From IMG/VR virus record IMGVR_UViG_3300016674_000066: a stretch of 64,000 bases of DNA; one strand, 5' to 3'. Both the position numbers and the translations under genes were made by a program. Within the stretch, counting starts at the first letter, position 1; the number at the start of each line of letters is the position of its first letter. This document shows, in pieces, positions 3,001-49,705 of the stretch. The DNA comes from a virus (lineage: Duplodnaviria; Heunggongvirae; Uroviricota; Caudoviricetes). Under the pieces are notes generated by a model. That model searched no databases. It was not told where the DNA came from and saw only the letters and a list, made by a program, of their open reading frames with translations.

Positions 3001-6000
3001 CAACGTTCAACACCTTCATCGCAACGGTTCCATCCGAGTTCTCTGTTCGCTTGAACGGGGAAAACTCAGAGGCGAAGTGGGTGGACCCGGACTCACTGCC
3101 GGACGGGCTGCACCCCGGATTTAGAGATGTCAAAGACCTGGTTGTTGGCGCCGCAAAATCCAAGAATCCGGCCGCATTGAGCCTGGATGGAAGCGAGATC
3201 AAGCGAAGCGCGCAGCGCGCCAAGGACGAGTACGCCGAAGTCGAGGCCAAGTACAAGGGCACCGACCAATGGCTCAAGGCGCCCAACGGCGGAAAGACGA
3301 ATCTGACCGAGCGCCAGTGGGTGCAGGTCCGCACTCCGGCCTTCAAGAAGTGGTTCGGTGACTGGGAGGCTGCGATCGCCAAGGGCGGCGTCTGGGCCGA
3401 CGACAGCACCTCCAAGGTTGTCGACGAGAACGGCGAGCCGCTGGTCGTCTATCACGGCACCGACAAGGGCGGCTTCATGGAGTTCGAGCAGCCCGGCGGC
3501 ACTGGCCGTGGCGACTTCGGGATCTTCACGACGCCCAACTGGGATATGGCGCGCAGCTACGTTCGCAAGAACCGCGCAAACGCAGTTGTCGACAGCGATA
3601 CCTCCGAGGCTGGCGACCAGCCCGGCATCTACGCCCTGTTCCTGAACATCCGCAACCCCAACGAGAGCGACTTCGAGGGTGCGACATGGAGCGGCGAGCG
3701 CTTCGGCCAGTACCAGGTTCTCGACGAGGACGGTGAGCCCATCTACGACGAGGCAGGCAACGGCTTCTTCGATTACGAGACGGCAGAAGAGCTGCTTGAG
3801 AAGAATCCCGGCTCCTACATTGAGCAGGCTGGCAGCCACTACGAAACTACCGACTCGGTGGTGAGAGAGGCCTGGCGCTATAAGAACGACGGCGCCATCG
3901 TGCGCAACGTAGTTGACGACGGCGGTGGCCCTGGCGCCTACGACATGACGCCGGCCGACATCTTTGTGGCCCTGTCACCCAACCAGCTCAAGTCCGCCGA
4001 CTTCAATGGTGGCGAGTTCAGCGCTGAGTCTGACGACATCCGCCGCAGCACGTCGCGCGAGTACAAGCTCGCCATCGACCGGGAGAGTCGCGTCAAGGCG
4101 AAGGTGGTTCGTTTGCTACCTGAAGAGATTTCGGCAATCGAGTCGGACGCGAAGAAGTTTGGCCTGTCGACCTCTCAGGTGAAGTCGGTGATGGATAGTG
4201 CCAAGGCAACAAAGCGGCAGTATCCGGCGTCTGAGGGTTGGGCCCAGATCTCAGTCATCGGCATCAACGTCAAGAAGGATGACAATGGCAACATTGTCCC
4301 GAACAGCGAAGAGCCGAAGTTCAAGGAGATCTCTTACGGCTTCAACGTTCCGCCCGGAAAGACCCGTGCGTCGCCAAAGCTGGATGCAGATCTGGCTGGC
4401 AAGGTTGCCAAGAAGTTTGAGCAGCTCATCCTGGACGTCTACGACCGAGCCGAGTCTGGCGACAAGAACGCCCAGATCATCGTTGGGCACCAGACCTGGT
4501 ATCGCAACGTGGCCGAGGTTCTGCGGCGCGAGTATGGCGCGGCCGGTGACATGTTGGCCGACCTGCTTGGTGCAACTTCCCCGAATACGCCAGTAGACAC
4601 CAACTGGAAGTTCTCTATCGACATCATGCGCCGCTTCATGCGGGGCGACTTTGATGAGCAGCTGGAGAAGTTCTCTGCCTTTGTTGAGCGCGGTGGCGAC
4701 CCGTCAAAGTATCCGGCCGCAGACAAGATCCGCCAGATCAGCGGCAAGCTGTATGGCATGAACTCCACCAACGCCATGAAGGCGCTGGTTGATATGTGGC
4801 GGCTGATTGAGCCGGGCCAGGCTCCGAAGGCGCGCAACTTTGCGTTGAACCTGATTGGCCAGTCGAACATGGCAACGATAGACGTGTGGGCTGCGCGGAT
4901 GCTTCGTCGCGCTGCCAACATGGTGAGAGGCGTCAGCCTGCCACGCATCCCTCCTGTTGCTGAGACCGGAGTGACTGGCGCCTGGAACGCGGACAGCACC
5001 AAGGTGACTGGCGAGTTTGGCTTTGGCGCTGAAGTCATGCAGATGGTCTCTGACTCGCTGGCCAAGAAGGGCGTCGTCGTATCCCCTCCAGATCTGCAGG
5101 CGATTGCGTGGTTTGCTGAGAAAGAGTTGTGGGGCCAGAAGGGATGGACCACAAAGACCGGCGAAGGCGGGTCGTTTGAGGAGAACATCGAGGCAACTCC
5201 GGTTGAGCGATACCTGGCCGGATGGAGCATCCAGCAAGGCGAAAAGCGCCCCGAGGATGGCAAGGCCACCGTGGCGCAGGCCCGCGTCATGTCCATGCTG
5301 GTTGGTGATGACACGGTGCTGGCTGCGCGCGTCATGCCGACTTACGGTCTGTACGGCGGCACCATCGAGGCATCGTTCGATACCGAGTGGACGGCGCAAA
5401 AGGGCAAGCATGACCCGACGCTGGTGATGGCCGAGATCGCCAAGCTGGCGCAGGAAAACAATCAGTGGGACATCTTTGTGTCCAGGGTTGTGCAACCGAA
5501 CGAGGAAAACAGAAACGCACGCCCAGGCGTTGAGATCTACTTCCGCGACCGCAAGTCTCTCGACCAGGCCATGCCCATCCTGGAGCGATTCACATCGCGC
5601 GGTCAGGATGGATTTACAATGGCCGTTGACCCACGAGCCAAGAAGAAAGGGCTGGAGGATCAGGAATTTATTGGGGTGAGGCTCCAGTACGTTCCCGAGA
5701 TCTCGATGCGCTGGGATGAGTCCTTGCGCGAAGAGATCATGAAGCCTGGTGCGATTGAGCAGATTCTCGATGAGAAGCGCCAGCTTCTTCACGAGATCGC
5801 TCGCGAGGTTAGGTCCATGGATGGCGTGGCTTTCGCCTCCATGCAGCAGTACGACACGGTTGTCGTCGGAAAGGAAAACTACGATGAGTACATTGATCGA
5901 GCAACTGAGGAAGGACGTCAGGGAGCTCGAACGCAAGCATGGTTCGGACGACCCGTACGTCAAGGACTTGAAAGAGCAGTTGCGCGCCTCAGAGGAGAAC

Positions 6001-7070
6001 GCGAGCAAGCCGGCCGAGGAGGTGTACAAGATGCAGGCGACGCAGTTCAAGCCAAACCTGCCCTCTCGGCCGACGCGCAAGCAATTCTCGACGCAAGCGG
6101 AGTACGAAGAAGCCCTGGCCGGGTGGCAGAGCAGGGTCGGTCGGATCAAAGCTCTGGGCGCGAAAAAGACGGGAGCCTGAATGGCCTGCCGCGCGACTTC
6201 ACTGTCGCCGGCATCGACATCCGCGCCAGCCACTGGGCACCAGCCGAAGCTGTAGCGCGTCAGTACATGGAGCGCGCCGGTCTCGAGTACCGGCCTCCAG
6301 CCAAGTACGCCAAGGTCGACAAGGAGCGTGCCGCGCGCATCGCTGCCGAGTACGACCGCATGAAGCACGATCCGAAGAATCCTGTGGTCAAGGCTGCCTA
6401 TAAGGCCCTGACCAAGGAAACGATCGAGCAGTACCGCGCCGTCGTCGAGTCTGGGCTGCAGGTCGAGTTCATCGACTTCGCCTCCCAGGGCGACCCGTAT
6501 GCCGCCAGCCCGCGCCTCATGACCGAGGACGTGCGCAACAACAACCACATGTGGGTGTTCAGCACGCGCGACGGCTTCGGCACCGACGCATCCTTCGACC
6601 CTGAGGACAACCCGCTCCTGGCGGAAACCGAGTTCGAGATCAGCGGTCAGAAGGCCCTGGTCAACGACCTGTTCCGCGTGGTGCATGACTACTTCGGTCA
6701 CGTCAAGGAGGGCGTCGGCTTCCGCGCTGATGGGGAGGAGAACACCTGGCGCGCCCACAGCTCTATGTTCAGCCCGCTGGCTCAGCGCGCGCTGACCACC
6801 GAGACGCGCGGCCAGAACAGCTGGGTGAACTTCGGGCCCCATGGCGACAAGAACCGCACGGCATCTGCTGGCGAGACGCACTTCGCTGACCAGAAGACTG
6901 GCTTGCTGCCGCTGTGGGTGAGCGAGGACGGGCGCTACGACGAAGATGCCTCGGCTCAGCCTGACGACATGACGATCCGCATTGGCGAAGAGACTCAGAA
7001 ATCAGACGCCGACGAATACAATCAGCGGATCGCGGCACTCGAAGAGTTGATCGCCTGCCTCAACAAGTAA
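3..7070 (+). CDS. Giant multidomain 'polyvalent' virion/effector protein. It is 5'-partial: frame 0 is open from the window edge. Domains: inorganic-pyrophosphatase-like, HExxH zincin, Nudix, PARP-like ART, and a C-terminal module starting at 6181
   Basis: Frame 0 is open from nt 3 with high GC3. Motifs: ENPRGS...HHYGEI...DGDRVDVFIGD (PPase-like, about nt 930-1110); FGHELMHIL (HExxH, about nt 1600); GGAVDAGESLEAAALREAKEEIGF (Nudix box, about nt 2880-2950); VVYHGT...GDFGIFTTP...NPNESDF (H-Y-E ART-like, about nt 3440-3680). Confidence 0.75.
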   Translation, partial: EQALARIETVAEWMGVNLGDIAQGVSQQSNEQAGPPTRPQQVGQMITSTPGLSGQERDEALQSMMAWRNTRLPARTRQAALDRALEIVGRTQAPQGRANPDRQPAVMRDIAPQEGAPEYFLREAERREDGAYQFRALGYDDEADALLLEADSLREAAASARAGTLNVEDSAEADADIASQSRALSVDEASGSLPRVQIPASTDQEIGEASTALRRKRKAQIAQIVGNGFDTVERSGEGFVLRNTKTGQSVMLDGMADAQIARNAIKARVDELANTAAASPLNDRLEPTEAQIKAGNYKKSDVIELNGVKVVIENPRGSVRRGVGADGKPWETKMAHHYGEIVGTEGADGDRVDVFIGDRPASNKIFVIDQVNQDGTFDEHKLVFGAVSEADARQTYLANYDKGWTGLGAIKELPLADLKTWLKDHAKKPAAESGMGAIQVRVKGKTYTVSAVPVESLPASSGDSPSRGVKGAQITKQQAILLKGLAGFFGKDIVFFSDPQSKVDSDGFVIPGDDVTIYLNERSGISPLAVFGHELMHILRSDNPAAYDAIAKVVAERVQDPKGFRENYYGKDSAEAKSDAALSDRDLEELISDLNGDLMSDGAFWRDVFAKIQDDNGAQAKSIIANLAAFFQKILDGAIAAIKGQPSFRASRFINDAEAVRNAFRDGMAMYAQGAGISKAAMQAELLKAQQKLGDIKRSAPRPDDGLTVDGYHFSKQARQILSTGFFGTGLQGSDREEIMSNPDMRLRQRLSFYVNKGTGIRPESGVGPIAHKATLTNIYDADADVKRLKQGRDKRAFETAVINAGYSGYLTRLDGSQPGQVILLGSQTVKTEVLGMRTQIDDAKVVPAMAKRDADLGDKFSALKIPLNGQLIPQRWAQMVMARDPELAAQLMDIGAFEGDKPMYQDEFVAMVRQKVGAPKRPSGLQAAGIVFKAADTGRILMAKRGSSVANPGTWSIPGGAVDAGESLEAAALREAKEEIGFQGQVKLARIAEAKFGNATFNTFIATVPSEFSVRLNGENSEAKWVDPDSLPDGLHPGFRDVKDLVVGAAKSKNPAALSLDGSEIKRSAQRAKDEYAEVEAKYKGTDQWLKAPNGGKTNLTERQWVQVRTPAFKKWFGDWEAAIAKGGVWADDSTSKVVDENGEPLVVYHGTDKGGFMEFEQPGGTGRGDFGIFTTPNWDMARSYVRKNRANAVVDSDTSEAGDQPGIYALFLNIRNPNESDFEGATWSGERFGQYQVLDEDGEPIYDEAGNGFFDYETAEELLEKNPGSYIEQAGSHYETTDSVVREAWRYKNDGAIVRNVVDDGGGPGAYDMTPADIFVALSPNQLKSADFNGGEFSAESDDIRRSTSREYKLAIDRESRVKAKVVRLLPEEISAIESDAKKFGLSTSQVKSVMDSAKATKRQYPASEGWAQISVIGINVKKDDNGNIVPNSEEPKFKEISYGFNVPPGKTRASPKLDADLAGKVAKKFEQLILDVYDRAESGDKNAQIIVGHQTWYRNVAEVLRREYGAAGDMLADLLGATSPNTPVDTNWKFSIDIMRRFMRGDFDEQLEKFSAFVERGGDPSKYPAADKIRQISGKLYGMNSTNAMKALVDMWRLIEPGQAPKARNFALNLIGQSNMATIDVWAARMLRRAANMVRGVSLPRIPPVAETGVTGAWNADSTKVTGEFGFGAEVMQMVSDSLAKKGVVVSPPDLQAIAWFAEKELWGQKGWTTKTGEGGSFEENIEATPVERYLAGWSIQQGEKRPEDGKATVAQARVMSMLVGDDTVLAARVMPTYGLYGGTIEASFDTEWTAQKGKHDPTLVMAEIAKLAQENNQWDIFVSRVVQPNEENRNARPGVEIYFRDRKSLDQAMPILERFTSRGQDGFTMAVDPRAKKKGLEDQEFIGVRLQYVPEISMRWDESLREEIMKPGAIEQILDEKRQLLHEIAREVRSMDGVAFASMQQYDTVVVGKENYDEYIDRATEEGRQGARTQAWFGRPVRQGLERAVARLRGEREQAGRGGVQDAGDAVQAKPALSADAQAILDASGVRRSPGRVAEQGRSDQSSGREKDGSLNGLPRDFTVAGIDIRASHWAPAEAVARQYMERAGLEYRPPAKYAKVDKERAARIAAEYDRMKHDPKNPVVKAAYKALTKETIEQYRAVVESGLQVEFIDFASQGDPYAASPRLMTEDVRNNNHMWVFSTRDGFGTDASFDPEDNPLLAETEFEISGQKALVNDLFRVVHDYFGHVKEGVGFRADGEENTWRAHSSMFSPLAQRALTTETRGQNSWVNFGPHGDKNRTASAGETHFADQKTGLLPLWVSEDGRYDEDASAQPDDMTIRIGEETQKSDADEYNQRIAALEELIACLNK
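5884..6180 (+). CDS. Embedded small ORF in the +1 frame (98 aa, K/E-rich coiled-coil-like protein, MSTLIEQLRKDVRELERK...) lying inside the giant ORF
   Basis: High GC3 and a realistic amino-acid composition in frame +1. Over the same span frame 0 has AT-rich third codon positions and an R/G/A-rich low-complexity translation. RBS: GGAAAGGAAAActacgATG. Confidence 0.4.
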   Translation: MSTLIEQLRKDVRELERKHGSDDPYVKDLKEQLRASEENASKPAEEVYKMQATQFKPNLPSRPTRKQFSTQAEYEEALAGWQSRVGRIKALGAKKTGA

Positions 7071-7082
7071 CGGAGAAGCCAG

Positions 7083-10000
7083 ATGGCGCAATTGATGTCG
7101 ACCTCGTGCCTGAAGTTGGTCGCAAAAATCAACGAGAGAGACCAGGATGCGCTGCTCTCTCGCCTCGACGAGCTCCAGGCCCAGGGCATGCCGGCGCAGC
7201 GCGCCCAGATCCAGGCCGCCATCGATGTGCTCTCTGGCCTTCGCCGCGAGGCTGCAAACGCCTCGTCCATCCCCGAGGACCAGGACATCAACCCGGACCA
7301 GCCCGACATCAAGCGCAGCGCTGCCCGAGTCATCCCTGACTTCGTTGAAGAGAACATCGAGGACACGGAGTACCCGGGCTCGAAGTATGCGGAGTTCGAT
7401 GACGGAGCCGCGTACGTGAAGTTCTTTGCGGACAACAAGGGGGATCTGCGTGTCACGACGCTGAATACCGAGGGCTCAGATAAGGTGCGCGGGCGAGATG
7501 TGTTGCGCTGGCTTGGGCAGACGTACGGTCGCCCGATCCTGGTCAACGAGGTCGACCCTCCTGCGTCTGGCTTCTGGGACAAGATGCAGGATGAAGGCAT
7601 CATCAAGGACTGGTCCAGGGATGCGTATCGAGGCAAGACGTCTAGCTTGCCGGATACCGACATCAAGCGCAGCACCGGCAGAAGCGAGGAAGAGATCGCA
7701 GCCGCCAGGGCTGATGGCTGGACCATCGCCGACAACGACCTGCCGTCGCGAGAGGCTGCAGAGCGCATCGTCAAGCTTCGCACCAAGGGCAACAGCGTCG
7801 TCAAGCCGATGGCCGCCTGGCAAGGCGCTGAGGTGCGCGTTGTCGAGAGCGACAACCCCGGGTTCTGGGCGATCGAGGCTCGCCGACCCGACGCAAAGCG
7901 CAGCGCCGCGCGCGACATCACCCGCAGCCGCAAGCGCCAGCCATCTGAGATTTTCGGCCGAGAGATCGCGCCAGCTGCAATCCGCGCATACAAGTCACTC
8001 TCCGCTGGCGCCAAGTCGATCGTCGACGGCTGGAACGTCAACTGGTCCATGGGCCAGGGCAGGCTGCGCAACAGCAAGGACTTTGATGAGGTGGTCAAGG
8101 CCTATGAGCCGGTGCGCGAGAAGCTGCGCCAGGTGTACGGCAGCACCGTGCCGGCATTCCGAGGCGAGAAGCAGGACGGCACCGAAAGCACGGACGATCG
8201 ATTCCTGTTCTCATGGACGCCGATGCGCGACATTGCAGCCGGCTTCGCCGTCAACCGCCGCTACGGCATGCCGGCCGAGATCCCGCAGTCTAAGGTCGAC
8301 GAGCAGATCGAGGCGTACAGTAAGACGGGCATCGCCCGCCTGAATGGCTACAAGTTCGTCCGCAAAGATCCGGGCGACTACGAGCCCGACGGCCCGGACT
8401 ACTACTACATCTACCAGGGCGGCGAGATGATCACCGACGGTGACGACATCGCCCGGGCTCTGCAGCAGGAGAAGGATGAGCGCGACGCATGGATCGGCGA
8501 GTTGCGTGATGGCGGCAAGCTCTACGCCGGCAACATACCGGTTGACTCAGTGGCATTCATCCCTGTTGGCGCCAACCTGCGCCAGCCCGAGTTCGTTGCC
8601 GAGTACAACCCCCGCAAGGACGCGGCTGGCGAGATCCGCCTAAGCACCAAGCGCAACGAGCTCGGCTTCCATTCTGCTCTCGAGCGTGGCATCGAAGACA
8701 TGCAGACCAAGTCTGCTCTTGCCGGTGCCTGGAAGGCCCAGATCAAAGGCTTGGTCAACAAAGGTGCCGTGAAGCAAGACGAGGTCACCTGGTCCGGCAT
8801 TGAAGACTGGCTCGACATCCAGGATGGCAAGGTCACCAAGGATGCAATCGCCGAGTACCTGAAGCAGGGCGGCGTGCAGGTGGAGGAGGTGACGCTGGGC
8901 GCCGTGGAGACTGGGCCCCAGCTCGATGCCTGGCTCGAGAAGTGGTCAGAGGAAAACGATGGTGAAACCGCCAACGCCATCTACAACGGCCAGGCCTGGA
9001 GCTATATCCAGCGCATTGCAAAGCAAGAAGGCCACCAGGATGTTGTTGACCGCATCGAGGCTAAGGTCAGTGGTGCGGAGCCCAAGTACGGCCAGTACAC
9101 CCTGCCTGGCGGCGAGAACTACCGTGAGGTGCTGCTGACGCTGCCGCCGATTGGCGGTGTGAGGTACACCGAAGAGAACGTCATTGCCATCGACGACTCC
9201 GATGACCCGAAGCGGTCGCAATACTTTTGGCGCTTCAAAGTTCCTGGCAACGAGCTGCAGATCTCCAAGCAGGTCTACCGCACCCAAGAGGAGGCAAAGG
9301 CTTACATCCTGAAGGAGAAGCAGCCAGAACCGCCAGCAGACAAGAACTACCGCTCCAGCCACTGGGATCAGCGCAACATCCTCGCTCACATCCGCGTCAA
9401 CGACCGCGCCGATGCCGACGGCAAGCGCGTTCTGTTCGTCGAGGAGCTGCAGAGTGACTGGGGGCAGGAGGGCAAGAAGAAAGGGTTTGCAGACAAAAGT
9501 GTGAGCATGGCTGAACTGGCCAAGCAGTTCGACGAACTCAACCGAGAGCGCCGCACCCTTGAGCAGCAGATTGCGGAAGGCGACGACGCTGACCAGGCAA
9601 CTCAAGCGGCTGTTGAAAGGTCGGTTGATGTCAACCGCCAGATGGTTGCACTGTCTGACCGCATGGCCGCACTTCGCTCCGGCGTCCCCACCGCACCCTT
9701 TGTGACCAAGACCGAAGGCTGGCTCAACCTCGCCCTCAAGCGCGTCATCGCCATGGCGGTGGATGGCGGCTACGACGCAGTCGCCTTCGTCAATGGCGAC
9801 CAGTCGGCTGATCGGTATGACCTGAGCAAGCACGTCGATGAGTTGATGATAGAAAGGGATGGAGACAGCTTCAAGATTTCCATGAAGCCCATCGGCGGTT
9901 ACTACGGGGACGGCGGGCGCTGGAGCGGAAAGGTGCAAGAGCTACCAGACGTCTTGGGCAAAGAGCTTGCGGACAAGGTCGCAGCGCAGCCGGAAGGTCG

Positions 10001-13000
10001 GTCCTACATAAACGGTGTTGACCTCAAGGTAGGCGGCGAAGGCATGAAGGCCTTCTACGACAAGATCGTACCCAACGCTGTGAAAGCCCTGCTGAAGAAG
10101 GTGGGCGGAGAGCAGCTCGAGAAAGTCGGCATCCCAGACTCCAATGCTGGCCGCGAGGTTGTTGCAGCCAAGGTGCCGGGCGAAAATATGTGGGGCGTCT
10201 ACGATCGCCAGAAGGGTCAGTGGCTCGAGAGCTGGGACCGCGAGACCTACACATCTGACCCCGAGAATGCGGAGCTGACAAGCGAGAAAACGGCAAAGAG
10301 TATCGCTTCCGCGATCATGCGAGATGCCGGCGTTCTTCTGGAGCAACCCGGCTTCACCATCACCGACGCCATGCGCGAGAAGGTGGCAACCGAAGGCCTG
10401 CCGCTGTTCAGCCGCAAGCGCGACGTCACCGAGACGCCGGAGTTCCAGGCGTGGTTCGGTGACTCCAAGGTGGTGGACGCCGATGGCAAGCCGATGGTGG
10501 TGTATCACGGGACCGGCAAAGACTTCAGCGCATTCGGCGGCGGTTTTTCACCGGACCACGGGAGCGACGTTCACTTCTTCACCCCTGACCCGGATGTGGC
10601 GAATGGCTTTACCCCAGCAAGCGGCAATGGATCGGTAATTTATCCGGTCTATCTGTCGCTGCAAAATCCTGCTGAGCTTGATTTCTTTGGTGAGGACTAC
10701 GACGGAGAAGCCGTCAATGACGCGATAGACGAGGCGATCGCTGCTGGAAACGATGGCCTAATCATCACGAACATCAATGACGTGAAGGCATCGGAAATGC
10801 AGTACATCGCCTTCCGCCCAGAGCAGATCAAGAGCGCCATCGGCAACCGTGGCACCTTTGACCCAAGCGACGCAGACATCCGCCGCTCCACTGGCCGCAC
10901 CTTCACTGGTGCCGACTGGGACTCGCCCAGCGCCTCGAAGTTTGACGACCTGGTCTACAAATTCCAGGACAAGCTGATCGACACCAAGCGCGTGGTCGAG
11001 GCTATCAAGGACACGTCAGGCGCCATTGCTGACGACCTCGATGTCTACCTCCAGGAGGAGCTGTACCACGGCCGCGCCGCCAAGCGCACCGAGGACTTCG
11101 TGAACATGGAGCTCAACCCGCTGGTCGAGCAGCTGACCAAGGACGGCCTGAAGTTGGAAGACCTCGAGGAGTTCCTGCACGCCCGCCATGCGCCCGAGGC
11201 CAACAAGGTCATTGCCCAGCGCAACCCGGGCGTGGCAGGCCTCCAGGATGGCGGCTCCGGCATGAAGACGTCGGACGCCCTGGACTACATGACCACGTTG
11301 CCGGCAGACCTGAAAGCCAAGCTCGAGGCGGCAGCAGCCAAGGTCGACGACATCATCGCTCAGACCCGCAAGCTGTACGTCGACTACGAGCTCGAGAGCC
11401 AGGAGACGGTGGACGCCTGGGGCAAGATGTTCCAGCACTACATCCCGCTGCAGCGCGAAGACAAGGATGGCAGCGGCAGCCCGGGCCTGGGTCAAGGCTT
11501 CAGCGTCAAGGGCAAGGAGACCAAGGGCCGCACCGGTTCAACCCGCAAGGTGGTCGACATCCTGGCCAACATCGCCATGCAGCGCGAGAAGGCGATCGTG
11601 CGCGGCGAAAAGAACCGCGTGTCTCAGGCCCTGGTTGGCCTGGCCAGTGCCAATCCCAATGAGGGCTTCTGGACCGTCGACGAGGTGCCCACCGAGCGCG
11701 TGTACGACGAGCGCCTGGGTGTTGTGGTGGATCGCCCTGACCCGATGTGGAAGGCGCGCGAGAACACCATGGTTGCCAAGATCGTGGGGCCTGACGGCAA
11801 GGTCAAGGAGCACGCCGTCGTCTTCAATGAGGAGGACGAGCGAGCCATGCGGATGGCCAAGTCCCTGAAGAACCTGGACGCCACCCAGCTCGAGGGCCTA
11901 CTCGGCGTTAGCGCCAAGATCAGCCGCTACTTCGCCGCCATCAACACCCAGTACAACCCGGTGTTCGGCGTGGTCAACCTAGTGCGCGACGTCCAGGGCG
12001 CCGTGCTCAACCTGTCCTCCACTCCACTCGAGAACGACCGAGCCAAGATCGCCAAGGACACAGCATCCGCGCTGCGTGGCATCTATGGCGACGCCCGCGC
12101 CGCACGCAAGGGCAAGAACCCGTCGTCGGCCTGGGCGCAGCTCTGGGATGAGTTCCAGGAAGTCGGTGGACAGACCGGCTACCGCGACCTGTTCAGGACC
12201 AGTGCCGAGCGCGCGGAAGCCATCAAGAAGACGCTGAACCCGGATGCCTGGGCCGACAGCAAGCTTGGAAAGATCTTCACCGCCAACGGCGCACTGAAGG
12301 TGCCCATGGCCCAGGCCAAGCGCGGTGCCGGCTGGATCTTCGACTGGCTGAGCGACTACAACCTGGCCATGGAAAACGGCGTGCGCCTGGCGGCCTACAA
12401 GGCTGGTCTGGAGCGCGGGATGTCCAAGGAGCAGGCAGCATCGGTCGCCAAGAACCTGACGGTAAACTTCAACCGCAAGGGCCAGGTGAGCCAGCAGGCC
12501 GGCGCCATGTACGCCTTCTTCAACGCCTCGGTGCAGGGCACGGCGCGCATCGCCCAGACCATCTTCACCATGGAGCCTGGCAAGCCCAAGACCATCCGCC
12601 TGAGCCCCTTCGGCAAGAAGGTGGTGTACGGCGGCATGCTGGTTGGCTCCGTCCAGGCTCTGGCCCTGGCGGCTGCCGGCTTCGGCGACGAAGACCCGCC
12701 GCAGTTCGCCCGCGAGCGCAGCCTGATCATCCCGCTGATGAACGGCAAGTACATGACCATCCCGATGCCGCTGGGCTTCCACGTCATCCCCAACATCGGG
12801 CGCATCACCACCGAGTTCGTGTTGAGCGGATTCAGCAAGCCGCACGAGCGCGCACTGCAGCTGTTCGGGCTGTTCGCCGACACGTTCAACCCGATCGGCA
12901 ACGCCGGCATGTCCATGCAGACCCTGGCCCCCACGGCGCTTGACCCGCTGGTGGCGCTGACCGAGAACCGCGACTGGACCGGCAAGCCGATCGCCCGCGA

Positions 13001-13604
13001 GTCGATGAACCCAGCCACCCCTGGCCACGCCACGGCGCGCGACACGGCAACCGCCCTGTCCAAGTTCCTGGCCGAGGCCATCAACACGGCGTCCGGCGGC
13101 AACCAGTACGTGGCAGGCGTCTTCTCGCCCAGCCCGGACCAGATCGACTACCTGATTGGCCAGATCACCGGCGGCGTAGGTCGCGAGCTCTCGAAGGTTG
13201 AACAGTCATCCCTGGCCGCGCTGCGTGGCGAGGAGCTGCCCACCTTCAAGATCCCGCTGGTGGGTCGCTTCGTTGGCGATGCCAAGCAGCAGGCCAGCGA
13301 GGGCTCAGCGTTCTACGCCAACACCGAGCGCATCAACAAGGTGGAGACGGAGATCAAGGGCCTGCAGAAGGACGGCAAGTACGCCGAGGCGGCCGAGCTG
13401 CGCCGCACCAACAGTGACGCCTACCTGATCGCCGTGGCCAACCAGGCCGAGCGCCAGATCCAGAAGCTGCGTTCTGAGAAGCGAGAGCTGATCAAGAACA
13501 ATGCGCCGCGCGAGCAGGTGCGCGCCGTCGAGGAGCGCATCACCGCAGTGATGGCCCGTCTGAACCGTGCCGCCGAGAGACTAAGGGAGCAGCAGGGCAA
13601 CTGA
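7083..13604 (+). CDS. Second giant polyvalent protein (2173 aa) with repeated DIKRS(A/T)xR linkers, a PARP-like ART domain and a C-terminal coiled coil
   Basis: Uninterrupted ORF with high GC3. The motif VVYHGTGKDF...VHFFTPDPD...NPAELDF (about nt 10490-10690) is a paralog of the ART-like domain in the first giant protein. The D-I/A-K/R-R-S motif occurs four times. Confidence 0.75.
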   Translation: MAQLMSTSCLKLVAKINERDQDALLSRLDELQAQGMPAQRAQIQAAIDVLSGLRREAANASSIPEDQDINPDQPDIKRSAARVIPDFVEENIEDTEYPGSKYAEFDDGAAYVKFFADNKGDLRVTTLNTEGSDKVRGRDVLRWLGQTYGRPILVNEVDPPASGFWDKMQDEGIIKDWSRDAYRGKTSSLPDTDIKRSTGRSEEEIAAARADGWTIADNDLPSREAAERIVKLRTKGNSVVKPMAAWQGAEVRVVESDNPGFWAIEARRPDAKRSAARDITRSRKRQPSEIFGREIAPAAIRAYKSLSAGAKSIVDGWNVNWSMGQGRLRNSKDFDEVVKAYEPVREKLRQVYGSTVPAFRGEKQDGTESTDDRFLFSWTPMRDIAAGFAVNRRYGMPAEIPQSKVDEQIEAYSKTGIARLNGYKFVRKDPGDYEPDGPDYYYIYQGGEMITDGDDIARALQQEKDERDAWIGELRDGGKLYAGNIPVDSVAFIPVGANLRQPEFVAEYNPRKDAAGEIRLSTKRNELGFHSALERGIEDMQTKSALAGAWKAQIKGLVNKGAVKQDEVTWSGIEDWLDIQDGKVTKDAIAEYLKQGGVQVEEVTLGAVETGPQLDAWLEKWSEENDGETANAIYNGQAWSYIQRIAKQEGHQDVVDRIEAKVSGAEPKYGQYTLPGGENYREVLLTLPPIGGVRYTEENVIAIDDSDDPKRSQYFWRFKVPGNELQISKQVYRTQEEAKAYILKEKQPEPPADKNYRSSHWDQRNILAHIRVNDRADADGKRVLFVEELQSDWGQEGKKKGFADKSVSMAELAKQFDELNRERRTLEQQIAEGDDADQATQAAVERSVDVNRQMVALSDRMAALRSGVPTAPFVTKTEGWLNLALKRVIAMAVDGGYDAVAFVNGDQSADRYDLSKHVDELMIERDGDSFKISMKPIGGYYGDGGRWSGKVQELPDVLGKELADKVAAQPEGRSYINGVDLKVGGEGMKAFYDKIVPNAVKALLKKVGGEQLEKVGIPDSNAGREVVAAKVPGENMWGVYDRQKGQWLESWDRETYTSDPENAELTSEKTAKSIASAIMRDAGVLLEQPGFTITDAMREKVATEGLPLFSRKRDVTETPEFQAWFGDSKVVDADGKPMVVYHGTGKDFSAFGGGFSPDHGSDVHFFTPDPDVANGFTPASGNGSVIYPVYLSLQNPAELDFFGEDYDGEAVNDAIDEAIAAGNDGLIITNINDVKASEMQYIAFRPEQIKSAIGNRGTFDPSDADIRRSTGRTFTGADWDSPSASKFDDLVYKFQDKLIDTKRVVEAIKDTSGAIADDLDVYLQEELYHGRAAKRTEDFVNMELNPLVEQLTKDGLKLEDLEEFLHARHAPEANKVIAQRNPGVAGLQDGGSGMKTSDALDYMTTLPADLKAKLEAAAAKVDDIIAQTRKLYVDYELESQETVDAWGKMFQHYIPLQREDKDGSGSPGLGQGFSVKGKETKGRTGSTRKVVDILANIAMQREKAIVRGEKNRVSQALVGLASANPNEGFWTVDEVPTERVYDERLGVVVDRPDPMWKARENTMVAKIVGPDGKVKEHAVVFNEEDERAMRMAKSLKNLDATQLEGLLGVSAKISRYFAAINTQYNPVFGVVNLVRDVQGAVLNLSSTPLENDRAKIAKDTASALRGIYGDARAARKGKNPSSAWAQLWDEFQEVGGQTGYRDLFRTSAERAEAIKKTLNPDAWADSKLGKIFTANGALKVPMAQAKRGAGWIFDWLSDYNLAMENGVRLAAYKAGLERGMSKEQAASVAKNLTVNFNRKGQVSQQAGAMYAFFNASVQGTARIAQTIFTMEPGKPKTIRLSPFGKKVVYGGMLVGSVQALALAAAGFGDEDPPQFARERSLIIPLMNGKYMTIPMPLGFHVIPNIGRITTEFVLSGFSKPHERALQLFGLFADTFNPIGNAGMSMQTLAPTALDPLVALTENRDWTGKPIARESMNPATPGHATARDTATALSKFLAEAINTASGGNQYVAGVFSPSPDQIDYLIGQITGGVGRELSKVEQSSLAALRGEELPTFKIPLVGRFVGDAKQQASEGSAFYANTERINKVETEIKGLQKDGKYAEAAELRRTNSDAYLIAVANQAERQIQKLRSEKRELIKNNAPREQVRAVEERITAVMARLNRAAERLREQQGN

Positions 13605-22677: not shown

Positions 22678-23766
22678 TCAGATGCCTCCGAAGGAAAGGG
22701 CTTCGCCGGTCTTGACGATGTAGGACTTGGCCGTCTCGTCGTCGACTCCGAAGTGGGTTGCCACGGCATAGACCACGCGGGCGACGTCGGGGATCTGGTC
22801 GTCGAACAGGCGGTCTTCGTGGGTGGCACCCAGGTCAATAGGCGGCTGGCTGCCGACGGGCAGGGCGTCAAACGGCACGTCGTCGTTGAACGACTCCTCG
22901 GCAGACCAGGATTCTGTTGCCGGATTGATGGGCTCGCCTTTATGCAAGCTCTCAACAACACCGGTGACCACGGGCACATCACCTGACGGGTAAACCTTGA
23001 CGGCGCCGACGCCGGTGGTAGCAGCCTGATCGACAGCAGCATGCACGGCAGCAGATTGCGACGCTGTCAGCTTGGCCACCATGGCCTGCATCTCGGCGAG
23101 CTGCTGGCGCAGACGCTCGTTCTCGGCTTGCTGGGCGGCAACGCGGGCAGCCTCTTCTTCGCGCAGCTGGATCTTCGCCTTCAGGGTGTGCAGCTCTGAG
23201 ATCACCTTGGTGCGGGTGTGCTCGGCCTCTGCCAGGAACTCCTGGAAGAACTCGGGATTCAGGATGGCGCCAAGCCCAACGATGATGGCGTCGATGTCAC
23301 CAACGGACAGGCGGTCAGCCTCTGCGCGCGCCGTGGTGCCAGCAATGCGGGTGATCTCATCGCGGATGATGGTGATGCGCTCGGCTTCCTTGCGCTCAGC
23401 CTCTTCCTTCTCGCGCTGCTTGCGCTCTTCCTCGGCTGTAATCTGGGCGTCGATCGGATCTTCGATCGCGCGAACCGCCAGGGTGATGCGCTCGGCCTCA
23501 GAGTTGAGCGCCGTCTGCGCAGCCTTGATGCGGGAGGCTTCCTCCTTGCGGATGCGCTCGACGTTGTAGCGCACCTCGCGGATGGTCATGCGGGCCTTCT
23601 TGGCCTGATCCATGCCCTTGGTGGTGGCCACATCGAACACGACGTTCTTGTAGGTCTCGCTCAGTTTGGCTAGACCCTTGTCGACCTTGCTCAGCTCCTT
23701 GAGCGCCATGACGGCGAAGTTGTTCTTTGCGACGGAGCCCTGTGCTCCTGCAGTCTGCTCTTCCAT
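22678..23766 (-). CDS. Coiled-coil hypothetical protein (362 aa)
   Basis: ORF track; long E/R/K-rich heptad region. Confidence 0.5.
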   Translation of the reverse strand: MEEQTAGAQGSVAKNNFAVMALKELSKVDKGLAKLSETYKNVVFDVATTKGMDQAKKARMTIREVRYNVERIRKEEASRIKAAQTALNSEAERITLAVRAIEDPIDAQITAEEERKQREKEEAERKEAERITIIRDEITRIAGTTARAEADRLSVGDIDAIIVGLGAILNPEFFQEFLAEAEHTRTKVISELHTLKAKIQLREEEAARVAAQQAENERLRQQLAEMQAMVAKLTASQSAAVHAAVDQAATTGVGAVKVYPSGDVPVVTGVVESLHKGEPINPATESWSAEESFNDDVPFDALPVGSQPPIDLGATHEDRLFDDQIPDVARVVYAVATHFGVDDETAKSYIVKTGEALSFGGI

Positions 23767-23842
23767 TTGAACTCCTGTTGGTGGTTGAGTGACTGCAGTC
23801 TAACACAAAATGTTGGCCAGTCAACACAAAGTACCGGCCAAA

Positions 23843-24118
23843 TCAAATTTTTTTTGCGGTCAGTTCAAACATCTCGACGGACCTGCGGCCACGGGTGTCG
23901 CAAGCCTTCTCGTTGCACACGCGCACTGCGCCGGTCTTGGCCATGGATGAGGTCAGCTTGCTGACAGTGGAGGGGTGCAGGCCTGTGACCTGGGCGATGT
24001 CAGACCTGGAGAATGGGCCGCGCACCATCCTGGCCAGCGCGTGGGCAAAGGTGATGTGGGTGACTCGTGCTGGTCTTTGCTTTGACATGGCGTAATTGTA
24101 TGACAAAGCGTTATACAT
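23843..24118 (-). CDS. HTH DNA-binding protein; candidate repressor or regulator (the start may be the internal MSKQRP)
   Basis: Helix-turn-helix SRSDIAQVTGLHPSTVSKL. Confidence 0.55.
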   Translation of the reverse strand: MYNALSYNYAMSKQRPARVTHITFAHALARMVRGPFSRSDIAQVTGLHPSTVSKLTSSMAKTGAVRVCNEKACDTRGRRSVEMFELTAKKI

Positions 24119-24130
24119 GGAACAGAAAGT

Positions 24131-24207
24131 TGGAGCGCCCGGAAGGATTTGAATCCTCGACCTGGTGACTAGAATTCACTTGCTCTATCCAGCTGAGCTA
24201 CGGGCGC
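24131..24207 (-). tRNA. tRNA-Arg (anticodon TCT)
   Basis: Cloverleaf read by hand. Acceptor stem GCGCCCG/CGGGCGC is perfect; D-arm is GCTCAGCTGGATAGAGC; anticodon loop is ATTCTAG; CCA is encoded. The T-stem has one mismatch. Confidence 0.65.
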
Positions 24208-25830
24208 ATGTTGACGGTGGCCGGTGCTGATCTCCGGCTTAGCGAAATCAGATCAAGTCAACCAAGACAACTTGCTTGGCAACCCATCGCCACAGAACTT
24301 TGCGCATCAGCCTGCGCATTCACCATCACATCAGCGGGCCGGGCTTGATACCGACTCAGGAAGTCATCGAGCGTGGCCGCCGATCACAAAGTCACGACGG
24401 TTGGGCCTCCTGCCTCACGGCTTGGCGTGTCCTTCCACGCTGCCGCTGGTGTGATGGTGCCGGTTACGCGATCCGGCGACAACGTGCCGATCAGTCGCCT
24501 GTGTGCGTGGCGACCGCTCGACCGTGACCGTTTTCAGACCCAGCGCTCCTACGCACAGGAGAGGGGCTGGATCGTAGAAAGTTTGCCGGTTACGTATCGT
24601 CCGGCACCGGGGCAAGGACGGCGAACCCCGATCGTTGACACATCTGCGTGCCGTCAAGCTGATGGTGCCAGTCGCACTGCCAGGCCATTGGGCAACTCGA
24701 AAGCCACCCGCACAACCGCATCGGTCCCGCAGCAAATGCTGTACGCGGACTGGAACTCCGTCAGGCTTTCGCCTTCACCATCAAGTGTGACGACTGACTC
24801 AGACCGATGGGCGGCTGTGGCTAAGCACCCATCATGCATAGCATCAATCGTCACGCTTGATGGCCCGTTACTCACGGCACATCAAGGATGTCTTTCCATC
24901 AGTCAGAACCTGTTGGCCGGTGTTCACCGCACTCTAACGATATGGCGTTTTCGCATTGCCCGCCCAGGACCGGTCGCCTGTCGAGTGACACCCTTCGTGG
25001 ACATTTATAGACCGTCTTGAAGGATGAAGTCATCCAGTCTTTTCTGTCTGGCAAGGGCGATAGGACTCGAACCTATGACCCCAGGGATCAAAACCCCGTG
25101 CTCTACCAACTGAGCTACACCCCACCATCAAGTGACGACCGCCCTACTATGCCGAGGGCCCCGGCGGAGCGATCCCAGCGTTTCAACACGATCGTCGCTT
25201 GATGGCCCTATCGAAGCAGGATCACCAAGGAGAGTTTTTCAATCCTCTCTGCCCCAGATGCTTGGGCCTTACCGCCGTGCTCGCCCGCTTTCAGATTCAT
25301 CGTCTTCGGTACTTTGCGCGCCGAGGCGCCGCTTACCTACTGGCTTCACCTTACTTGCTTGACAGTCCGCACTCTTTGATACGCCAGGCCGGAATCGAAC
25401 CGACTCATCGCCACCGGTATGACGACGTGCTCCAACACACTCCAGGCGCGGGCCGCAGCGGTATCCAGCCACTGCGGCTTGATCAGTCATCATGAAGCCT
25501 CACCGGCCCGCTGCATCCCGACTTACCCTCGTCCGTCGAGACCGGGCATTCCCGGTTACTTCGCGTTAGGGGTGCCGGATCGGCTTCATCATGACTGACT
25601 CAAGTCTTCGTGCTCACAGGCCGTGGATACCACTGGCCACCTCAGCTCGCACGGAGAATGACCCGTGCCAATTGCGTTTGCAACCGCAGCCTCGGAGGTG
25701 AACACGAAGGCTTGATGGCCCGATAACGGGGGCCAGTCGGCTAAGTCAGTGTGTTGACCGCTTCAGCTCGCGGCAGGAGTCCGGGCCACTACGCCCCCGC
25801 ACACACCACACGGTATGAACCATGGGTGCG
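24208..25830. ncRNA. Leader of about 1.6 kb with no coding potential, containing repeated structured RNA-like modules and tRNAs
   Basis: No ORF with plausible codon usage. Recurrent motifs include GCTTGATGGCCC (3 copies) and CACCATCAAGTG (2 copies), and there are long-range helices with compensatory changes. Confidence 0.4.
25049..25124 (-). tRNA. tRNA-Gln (anticodon TTG) with a U1·U72 terminal mismatch
   Basis: D-arm GCTCAGTTGGTAGAGC; anticodon loop TTTTGAT; perfect T-arm ATAGG-TTCGAGT-CCTAT; CCA encoded. The acceptor stem forms 6 of 7 pairs, including 2 G·U. Confidence 0.55.
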
Positions 25831-25831
25831 A

Positions 25832-25859
25832 GTATACACACATTTTTTGCTACACCAAC
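25832..25859 (-). promoter_or_regulatory. Leftward sigma70-like promoter (P_L-like): TTGGTG-N16-TATACT
   Basis: Hexamers read on the minus strand; the operator palindrome CCAACATTTTGTTG overlaps the -35 element. Confidence 0.4.
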
Positions 25860-25984
25860 ATTTTGTTGAGTAAATGTTGTGCTGCGGCCACACCAAGAAC
25901 CGGGGTCTGACAGAGAGACCCGGAGCCGGTTGCCAAGCTCGCCTCAATGAGGCGCTCAAGAAAGATTGCCACACAAAAAAAGTG

Positions 25985-26014
25985 TTGGCAAGGCAACAAA
26001 AAGATATGTAGAAT
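25985..26014 (+). promoter_or_regulatory. Rightward sigma70-like promoter (P_R-like): TTGGCA-N18-TAGAAT
   Basis: Hexamers and spacing read directly. The half-sites AAAAAGTGTTGGC and GCAACAAAAAG flank and overlap the -35 element. Confidence 0.45.
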
Positions 26015-26085
26015 CAGCGCAGTGCAGGCGGATACTAGCATGCACGTACGTGGTTCTGTGACCACTATCACCGAAGGAGTAGCAG

Positions 26086-26451
26086 TTGAATACCCATCAA
26101 ACCAGCGCATCGCCCGCGCCGGAAACCATCTTCCGCGTCCGCGCCTCAGACCCAGTGACGAGCGTCATGGCTGCAGAGTCTGCCGAGATGTTCGCCGGCA
26201 AGCACAAGGACCGCATCCGGCTCGCCTTGACAAAGCTCAAGTCCGCAACGGCGCACGACATTGCCAGGGTCACCGGCCTGACTGTCGTGCAGGTTGACCG
26301 ACGCCTGCCAGAGCTCAAGCGCGATGGCGTCGCAGATGTTGTCGAGGCATCGCCTGGCGTTGATCTTCTGAGGGATGGGTTCCGTGTGTGGGCCCTGAAA
26401 AAAATTTCGACCGAAGAGCAACAGGAAGTTGCCGAGGCAACAGGAGTTTGA
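26086..26451 (+). CDS. Winged-HTH protein (TTG start); the first gene of the rightward operon
   Basis: RBS GAAGGAG; HTH HDIARVTGLTVVQVDRRL. Confidence 0.5.
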   Translation: MNTHQTSASPAPETIFRVRASDPVTSVMAAESAEMFAGKHKDRIRLALTKLKSATAHDIARVTGLTVVQVDRRLPELKRDGVADVVEASPGVDLLRDGFRVWALKKISTEEQQEVAEATGV

Positions 26452-49601: not shown

Positions 49602-49633
49602 CCCGCATCGCCTACGGGTGCGGATATTTTGTT
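49602..49633 (+). terminator. Rho-independent terminator ending the 370-nt late leader
   Basis: CCGCATCG..GGGTGCGG hairpin followed by ATATTTTGTT. Confidence 0.5.
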
Positions 49634-49705
49634 CGGTAGCTCAGTTGGTAGAGCGTCGCACTGTTAATGCGATGGTCGCTGGTTCGAGGCCAGCCCGGAC
49701 AGCCA
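49630..49705 (+). tRNA. tRNA-Asn (anticodon GTT)
   Basis: Acceptor stem TGTTCGG/CCGGACA with one G·U; D-arm GCTCAGTTGGTAGAGC; anticodon loop CTGTTAA; T-arm GCTGG-TTCGAGG-CCAGC; CCA encoded. Confidence 0.75.

Follow-up and report, generated by a model that had tools for sequence, protein, structure and literature searches.

A leftward array of tRNAs, tRNA-like modules and two covarying RNA families in the early region of a tailed phage

Phage T4 encodes, on the same strand as its tRNA genes and directly after them, the stable RNAs rnaC and rnaD (species 1 and 2 RNAs, 119-139 nt), which mature together with the tRNAs and whose function is still unknown; rnaC has a canonical T-arm. GOLLD and ROOL are phage- and prophage-linked RNAs, large, highly structured, of a single 600-800 nt architecture and often located beside tRNAs; the variable regions of GOLLD can hold tRNAs. 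The C4 antisense RNAs of P1 and P7 and the CI antisense RNA of P4 are cut out of longer transcripts by RNase P, owing to their tRNA-like fold. The put RNA of phage HK022, two simple stem-loops right after the early promoters, exemplifies structured RNA in long phage operon leaders with highly conserved unpaired nucleotides. The locus described here invites comparison with all of these. It is a non-coding gap (24131-25830) in a 64,000-nt stretch of Caudoviricetes DNA (IMG/VR record IMGVR_UViG_3300016674_000066; the whole stretch is referred to as the window), and its minus strand carries two tRNAs and an array of tRNA-like and hairpin modules. Two of these modules, elements A and B, are widespread phage RNA families with covarying helices that are absent from Rfam.

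All recognisable RNA elements of the gap, four long hairpins among them, are on the minus strand and point leftward. Their order is long hairpins, an anticodon-less tRNA-like element (25380-25449), tRNA-Gln, A, a second cloverleaf-type module (B2), B, tRNA-Arg and then a regulator gene. The two tRNAs and the two families are the following:

25049-25124, minus strand: tRNA-Gln (anticodon UUG), called by ARAGORN; Rfam tRNA 60.3 bits.
24885-25046, minus strand: element A, a 53-nt core (24990-25042) with an extension of ~110 nt that ends in a GAAAGA-loop hairpin.
24990-25042, minus strand: A core, consisting of helix Pa, the hairpin GGAUG-ACUU-CAUCC, an 8-nt bulge and UAAAUGUC..GAAGGGU.
24212-24328, minus strand: element B, a tRNA-like cloverleaf with exact family motifs at 24302-24324 and 24216-24243 and covariation in P1, P2 and P4.
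24321-24328 paired with 24212-24219, minus strand: P1 of B, followed by the junction AAU.
24302-24317, minus strand: P2 of B, with the invariant loop GGCUGA.
~24239-24301, minus strand: P3 of B, the hypervariable arm.
24220-24238, minus strand: P4 of B, with loop AGAUCAGCA, complementary to the P2 loop.
24131-24207, minus strand: tRNA-Arg (anticodon UCU), which ends the array; called by ARAGORN; Rfam tRNA 51.5 bits.

Both tRNAs score above the RF00005 gathering threshold (29 bits) and have a 7-nt anticodon loop. Read from sequence, this arrangement suggests, with about an even chance of being right, a leftward-transcribed array in which tRNAs and tRNA-derived or tRNA-mimicking modules, set between long hairpins, are processed into stable tRNA-mimic RNAs. 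The array would be co-transcribed leftward as one primary transcript; tRNAs and tRNA mimics would be the cutting sites of host RNase P and RNase Z-type enzymes, and the 17-25 bp hairpins those of RNase III. Processing would free discrete stable tRNA-mimic RNAs and would also set a defined 5' end for the mRNA of the downstream regulator.

Element B is, on the RNA strand, a four-way junction. The closing stem P1 (8-9 bp, variable pairs plus GGUG/CACC) leads through the linker AAU to P2 (5 bp, loop GGCUGA); P3 (13-131 nt, of unconserved sequence that differs between phages) and the linker AA or AU follow, and P4 (GCCGG/CCGGC, loop AGAUCAGCA) is continuous with the 3' strand of P1. The copy at 24212-24328 shows every one of these features, with exact consensus motifs, and a fuzzy search of the window disclosed no further canonical copy. 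Pair counts, made with a custom script, cover 158 distinct standard-length sequences. Beside GGUG/CACC, the three variable pairs of P1 are found as GC, AU, UA and CG, with only 1-11 non-pairs among the 158, and shifting the P1 partner by one column reduces pairing from 81% to ~30%. G-U pairs are tolerated in the stems. P2 is also found as GCGUA/UACGC, GCAAA/UUUGC, GCCCG/CGGGC and GUGCA/UGCAC (at loci gathered through the other motif), and P4 as CUGG/CCAG, UCGG/CCGA and CAGG/CCUG (at loci gathered through the first motif).

The connectivity of B is that of tRNA: the closing stem runs into a 5-bp T-arm analogue, a 3-nt linker leads to a 5-bp D-arm analogue, and the variable arm takes the place of the anticodon arm. 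GCUGA of the P2 loop and UCAGC of the P4 loop could form five Watson-Crick pairs (the two are complementary in 99.7% of cells, and the loops are invariant save for one pair that changes from G-C to G-U), and a loop-loop contact that replaces the D-loop/T-loop contact of tRNA is plausible. With tRNA and tRNA-like structures (the tRNA-like domain of tmRNA, YrlA, the TLS of plant viruses) B shares the four-way connectivity, the continuity of closing stem and T-arm analogue, and a possible elbow contact. In contrast to tRNA, B would make its elbow by five Watson-Crick pairs, has neither a 7-nt anticodon loop nor a CCA end, and carries a hypervariable "anticodon arm"; the covariance models of tRNA, tmRNA and YrlA do not match it.

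In some copies the hypervariable arm displays an RNA that can be recognised. In locus L077 (3978-4026) it is a tRNA body, matching positions 5-66 of the Rfam tRNA model with 34.2 bits, and in L112 (1953-1999) it holds a piece of ~47 nt that matches small-subunit (SSU) rRNA models (36.7 bits, E 2e-7). T-arm-like hairpins are found in 8 of 168 variable arms, where 0.02 would be expected. ARAGORN predicts a whole tRNA-Pro nested inside the B of L110 (~581-666), and a host rRNA fragment is displayed in the B scaffold of four related loci (L112, L095, L085 and L115).

B is widely distributed. Just 5' of tRNA-Arg, the window gives two short near-exact BLAST matches to GenBank phages, in ~200 records whose hosts are Klebsiella, Escherichia, Pseudomonas, Burkholderia, Erwinia, Salmonella and others. 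Core motifs of B are carried by ~190 GenBank phage records and by more than 120 contigs of IMG/VR, where exact search with either motif yielded at least 120 loci; 102 genomes representing species of Gamma-, Beta- and Alphaproteobacteria contain a 23-mer of B; and the copy from a Klebsiella phage matches 763 of 5426 complete Escherichia coli genomes (~14%), in chromosomes as well as phage-plasmids. B is never annotated as RNA in the records inspected or listed, some of which have hypothetical open reading frames (ORFs) laid over it.

A same-strand tRNA lies within 1.5 kb of 26 of 197 B copies and an opposite-strand tRNA of none; at 11 copies the tRNA starts 8-23 nt after P1, as it does in the window. 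In the P1-like phage RCS47 (L235 2501-2665) B is directly downstream of tRNA-Asn and tRNA-Thr, and in SSU5-like E. coli plasmids it lies between tRNAs. In E. coli lambdoid prophages its place is directly after the tR' terminator downstream of Q, before the holin gene; the gene ahead of it is that of the repressor in a Stx2 phage and L231, and ssb in Burkholderia Lessievirus phages. Proteins encoded by neighbouring genes are diverse (Q-type antiterminators, CI-type repressors, holins, small terminases). Copies of B are closely paired in L229 (~23-54 and 321-352) and also in L005, L038 and L133, so that B itself can be arrayed. The RCS47 copy overlaps an ORF on the other strand that bears the annotation "putative lipoprotein Plp"; plp of P1-like phages may have been called in error over an RNA gene.

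The core of element A is 100% identical in the N4-like Xanthomonas phage RiverRider and 88-94% identical in Stenotrophomonas phages Piffle, Paxi and Pokken and Xanthomonas phage PB119; exact-core searches gave 24 loci. Two positions of the 5-bp helix Pa, which encloses the invariant hairpin, covary (AU/GC/CG and AU/UA/GC/CG, among 15 distinct sequences). The segment 24990-25042 has what defines the family: invariant CUGGAUGACUUCAUCCUUCAAGACGG, the covarying 5-bp helix, then UAAAUGUC..GAAGGGU. The extension is 82-86% identical among L227, L228, L229 and L231, and a consensus fold of five sequences of extended A has a weak covariation term. A is always preceded by the 3' end of a tRNA or tRNA-like element and an A-rich spacer. 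In the window this upstream element is tRNA-Gln; in L229 and L231 it is B, and elsewhere a T-arm-like hairpin. The order is long hairpin, B, A in L229 and L231 and long hairpin, tRNA-Gln, A in the window: one array position can be filled by either B or a tRNA. The flanks of A and B in L227, L228, L229 and L231, and the window at 24890-24905, carry what may be another module, a small hairpin with a conserved loop (G-GAAAGA-C) whose stems covary (CCCCG/CGGGG, GCUCG/CGAGC, GAUG/CAUC) and of which each array has several copies.

The order of the window recurs in N4-like Pokkenviruses (Piffle, Pokken and PB119): tRNA-Gln, then unannotated RNA (870-1030 nt) in which the A core lies, then tRNA-Arg. 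In RiverRider tRNA-Gln is followed by a 790-nt gap that contains the A core (fold z = -8.96), without a tRNA-Arg. (The unannotated segments after tRNA-Gln are RiverRider L001 3493-4282, Piffle L224 677-1602, Pokken L225 743-1614 and PB119 L226 653-1678.) Some 600 nt of this non-coding RNA can be aligned among the four phages, and it is possibly an independent large structured RNA. In the PB119 segment the annotation places a 30-aa "hypothetical protein" and a 100-nt "tRNA-His".

Conservation of the array extends to a phage contig, L350, in which the homologue of the window's 362-aa neighbour protein is only 46% identical. L350 keeps 264 nt (25196-25456) at 76% DNA identity, together with two copies of the GGGCCAUCAAGC hairpin, upstream of the gene for this homologue; tRNAs and canonical copies of A and B are absent from it. 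The earlier note on this DNA, made by eye from sequence, took conservation in related phages and covariation as what should be looked for: a related phage does retain the array, and the helices of A and B do covary. That note had left the choice between an undescribed structured RNA family and an array of RNA elements. Because module orders and combinations differ elsewhere (L229, L231), the locus is a modular array and not one fixed large RNA. Thus the array, with A and B as conserved covarying families absent from Rfam, holds good, and the single large ornate RNA does not.

Rfam 15 was searched with the whole window at the gathering threshold, with 23700-26200 at E<=1 and with 24200-25060 at E<=10. 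No family besides tRNA matched at any of these scopes, and searches of the window, its sub-regions and eight other loci gave only tRNA matches and noise; the covariance-model check that had been proposed for the region thus returns tRNA and nothing else. GOLLD (RF01998) and ROOL (RF03087) have no match in the window at any of these scopes, nor in the RiverRider homologue at E<=10, so that the array belongs to neither family, as had been judged by eye. C4 antisense RNA/c4-a1b1, YrlA, STnc100, isrK and the like do not match over A or B in the window and five other B-bearing loci at E<=1. Downstream of B and a tRNA-Ser in an SSU5-like E. coli phage-plasmid, L126 (2683-2803) has a sub-threshold STnc100 match (40.4 bits; gathering threshold 47). 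Pas small RNAs and STnc100 are different from the array, being terminator-bearing Hfq-type small RNAs confined to Escherichia and Shigella. The M3 RNA of phi80, an RNase P substrate, was also considered as a relative and set aside: it is an oop homologue, and phi80 lacks B. Keyword searches of the literature found no description of the array elements, and in a full-text search no paper turned up that has the B motifs, written as DNA or as RNA; B may be among the 10,006 unnamed candidates in a 2023 catalogue of viral structured RNAs (PMC10690425).

Like rnaC and rnaD, the modules lie on the same strand as phage tRNA genes, and the tRNA-like element at 25380-25449 has a canonical T-arm, as rnaC does; compared by eye, rnaC and rnaD have no sequence motif in common with A or B, and B, unlike them, is mostly outside tRNA clusters and occurs in temperate as well as lytic phages. 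B resembles the variable regions of GOLLD in that its arm can hold a tRNA. However, the array consists of 50-170 nt modules shuffled between phages, and the hosts are Proteobacteria. P1-like phages also carry B, beside tRNA-Thr, at a locus that differs from the P1 immunity region; there is no Rfam match between B and C4, and no target of the variable arm was found in the window (the longest antisense match, 12 nt, is not above chance). The put stem-loops follow early promoters, whereas B is a four-way junction that is found after a Q-dependent terminator, in tRNA arrays and elsewhere.

The gap contains no credible gene. Its ORFs are mechanical only (the longest, 215 aa, is on the plus strand); Pfam and PHROG gave no match to any of the four longest. 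Minimum free energies (MFE) of the minus strand, relative to shuffles, correspond to z = -5.07 (24208-25048) and -5.57 (25125-25831). The plus strand of this DNA has z = -2.86, and adjacent coding RNAs have -2.09 and -0.20. The word GCTTGATGGCCC occurs three times (24855, 25197 and 25710; 0.03 expected by chance, and none of 100 shuffles has three) and CACCATCAAGTG twice (24776 and 25123; 0.01 expected). Both serve as arms in long inverted repeats (17-25 nt). Most of what the earlier note had said about 24208-25830 survives these measurements: it is non-coding, it is strongly structured (on the minus strand), and both recurring motifs are non-random. Some details needed correction: the second and third copies of the triple motif are at 25197 and 25710 (they had been placed at 25195 and 25709), and of the two tRNAs assigned to this interval only tRNA-Gln is inside it, tRNA-Arg abutting its start just outside.

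The remaining modules, from right to left, are:

25600-25745, minus strand: third GGGCCAUCAAGC-initiated long hairpin (~25600-25721), with the small hairpin GGCCC-CCGUUAUC-GGGCC ahead of it (MFE and centroid fold, motif); includes a 44-nt match to L231.
25483-25598, minus strand: long hairpin I1, inverted repeat with 25-nt arms (25483-25507/25574-25598), 84% complementary; fold.
25380-25449, minus strand: tRNA-like element with acceptor stem, D-arm and canonical T-arm; its anticodon-stem analogue has 7 bp and a 4-nt loop.
25196-25456, minus strand: module D, 76% identical over 264 nt in L350, with a near-invariant block of ~75 nt (~25200-25275).
25125-25205, minus strand: long hairpin I4, a homologue of I2 with 17-nt arms (25125-25141/25189-25205), 88% complementary; MFE fold; kept in L350.
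24778-24863, minus strand: long hairpin I2, inverted repeat with 20-nt arms (24778-24797/24844-24863), 90% complementary; begins with GGGCCAUCAAGC and has two homologous copies in L350.
24660-24783, minus strand: element B2, second cloverleaf-type module; a conserved block shared with L202.
24776-24783 (UGAUGGUG) paired with 24660-24667 (CACCAUCA), minus strand: putative P1 of B2.
24452-24482, minus strand: hairpin CCGG-AUCGCGUAA-CCGG, then CACCAUCA; direct repeat D7; kept in Lessievirus phages, L040, L190 and L231.
24321-24459, minus strand: helix I3, inverted repeat of 17 bp (arms 24443-24459/24321-24337, 94% complementary) that encloses a domain of ~105 nt.

The 25380-25449 element is called by ARAGORN alone, as an odd "tRNA" with a 4-base anticodon, and has no Rfam tRNA match at E<=1, which leaves it outside RF00005. 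It keeps the genuine D and T arms of tRNA, and comparison with L350 shows compensatory changes in its anticodon-arm analogue. A 4-nt loop makes decoding impossible; the element is tRNA-like only. A cloverleaf can be inferred for B2 by analogy with B; B2 has a GGC-GAAA-GCC hairpin in place of P2. The 24452-24482 hairpin resembles a T-arm analogue with an acceptor 3' strand. I4 ends exactly at the 5' end of tRNA-Gln, and the 3' arm of I2 overlaps the 5' strand of B2 P1. Similarly, the 3' arm of I3 contains the 5' strand of B P1, so that I3 and P1 are mutually exclusive. Compensating changes in Burkholderia phage CSP3 and in part of the family preserve this either/or pairing. An upstream strand complementary to the P1 5' strand is present in the window and CSP3, in the consensus of the enterobacterial copies and at some other loci. 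Its conservation suggests that folding of each cloverleaf is ordered or switched during transcription or processing. An intergenic 75-nt hairpin of the T7-like Xanthomonas phage f20-Xaj (L352 1471-1545; GGCCC-ACGUUAC-GGGCC, then ACCAAC) resembles the window's hairpin at 25712-25745 followed by AUCAAG; the match is borderline (E 0.8), and the hairpin is found in 12 related phages.

Several observations weigh against a processed array of tRNA mimics. Only ~13% of B copies are near tRNAs; most are in leaders or intergenic. The position of B in lambdoid prophages, between the Q antiterminator and holin genes just after tR', fits a cis-acting role equally well. The coaxial P1+P4 stack would be ~13-14 bp long, in comparison with 12 in tRNA, and recognition of B by RNase P is therefore not assured. 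Variation in P2 and P4 is limited (this is because B loci were collected by exact motif search), and the loop-loop pairing is invariant, so that covariation does not test the contact. Descent of B from tRNA-Pro was considered and not sustained, the similarity of its 5' half to the acceptor and D-arm of a phage tRNA-Pro being marginal (score 24, shuffled maximum 22). Finally, the candidate promoter near 25831-25859 is weak by consensus and is not called in a scan.

The alternative that survives best, although it is still the less probable account by a good measure, is a cis-acting leader. B together with its upstream strand would be a switch, a processive antiterminator that binds RNA polymerase (as HK022 put does, or Bacillus EAR), or a 5' stabiliser against RNase E, and the tRNAs would be passengers. 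B is typically at the start of long operons (after tR' and before holin in lambdoids, after the repressor in the Stx2 phage and L231), and downstream ORFs often begin 10-120 nt past it. The upstream strand and the 3' strand of P1 compete for one 5' strand, in the manner of a riboswitch or attenuator. Invariance of the B loops across phages of Alpha-, Beta- and Gammaproteobacteria suggests contact with a conserved host machine. On the other hand, the lambdoid B is downstream of a Q-dependent terminator, where Q already supplies antitermination; no conserved terminator or helix that sequesters a ribosome-binding site follows B; what begins 8-23 nt after B at 11 loci is a tRNA, not an ORF; and at about a quarter of low-GC loci the nearby ORFs are mainly on the opposite strand.

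Action in trans is more doubtful. B, A, B2 and the anticodon-less element could constitute an unrecognised class of tRNA mimics in phages of Proteobacteria, in which a rigid tRNA-shaped scaffold, held by the Watson-Crick loop-loop contact, would present its hypervariable arm so that a conserved host factor is captured or diverted (candidates are RNase P, a tRNA-modifying enzyme and a defence nuclease that targets tRNA). Were this so, arrays of this kind would be RNA-based counter-defence or host-takeover islands, but it is put forward only tentatively. As decoys, an equally speculative proposal, these four elements would occupy host factors that recognise the elbow or acceptor of tRNA, thereby protecting phage or host tRNAs, and the arm would tune specificity; possible targets are tRNA-cleaving or tRNA-modifying defence toxins, RNase P and tRNA chaperones. 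Some phage tRNA arrays are known to counter anticodon nucleases. The 25380-25449 element retains a D/T elbow with a mere 4-nt "anticodon" loop, B has the topology of tRNA, the variable arm shows T-arm hairpins, a tRNA body and an SSU rRNA fragment, and the modules co-locate with phage tRNA arrays. Yet no partner protein has been identified, defence and anti-defence genes are not consistently adjacent, most variable arms are plain hairpins, and the variable arm of the window copy has no significant antisense target within the window.

It is very improbable that the array is a functionless graveyard of decaying tRNA genes, the leftover stems of a larger cluster: tRNA-like fragments, variable module order and the weak likeness of the B 5' half to a tRNA-Pro D-arm would be expected of one, but the loops of B are invariant and its stems change in compensation over hundreds of unrelated phages, an unrelated N4-like phage has the A core without a single change, and the L350 array is better conserved than the adjacent protein. 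An element acting as DNA (a single-stranded origin, a recombination or packaging site) or a set of hidden small genes has just as slight a claim; covarying hairpins can also work in single-stranded DNA and some B copies adjoin terminase genes, but B and tRNA share a strand in 26 cases and oppose in 0, the minus strand outfolds the plus strand, B stems tolerate G-U pairs, B is present in many unrelated phage types with differing replication and packaging strategies, and the ORFs match neither Pfam nor PHROG.

Whichever role B has, its carriers include P1-like phages, Pseudomonas phage D3, the HK lambdoids, Stx2-converting phages and Klebsiella phages of the type used in therapy. Finding its partner could expose a new layer of control of phage gene expression or of phage-host conflict. 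Models of A and B would improve phage annotation, and the B scaffold, which accepts inserts of 13-131 nt, is a natural analogue of the tRNA scaffolds engineered for RNA expression.

The gap lies between genes that fit a divergent early region. Leftward are a 91-aa winged-helix regulator (23843-24118, 12 nt downstream of tRNA-Arg), the 362-aa phage protein, which has no assigned function, and RecT; rightward are a second small protein resembling helix-turn-helix (HTH) regulators, a replication initiator and a DnaC-like loader. The divergent organisation that had been described is thus supported: on either side of the gap are this leftward operon and a rightward replication operon. The promoter that had been proposed for the leftward transcript is this:

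25831-25859, minus strand: candidate leftward promoter TTGGTG-N16-TATACT, hexamers read from the sequence.

Both hexamers are present as described, but as a promoter the site is less secure, the -35 hexamer agreeing with the consensus at 3 of 6 positions and the consensus scan making no call. Promoters that it does call are a leftward one at 23824-23797 and a rightward one at 25985-26014; within the gap it calls no intrinsic terminator on the minus strand. One of the small HTH regulators probably binds the operator-like inverted repeats (TGTTGGC-N4-(T/G)CAACA; CAACA-N3-TGTTG) that are located, at 23808-23829, 25853-25872 and 25975-25998, at these two promoters and at the candidate near 25850.

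Elsewhere in the window, far from the array, a canonical tRNA-Asn (GUU) is encoded on the plus strand (49630-49705, 66.9 bits). Two giant plus-strand ORFs (2346 and 2173 aa) fill 30-13604, and the DNA has weak matches to Burkholderia Lessievirus phages (Bcep22-like); together these suggest that the window derives from a Bcep22-like podophage of a high-GC proteobacterium.

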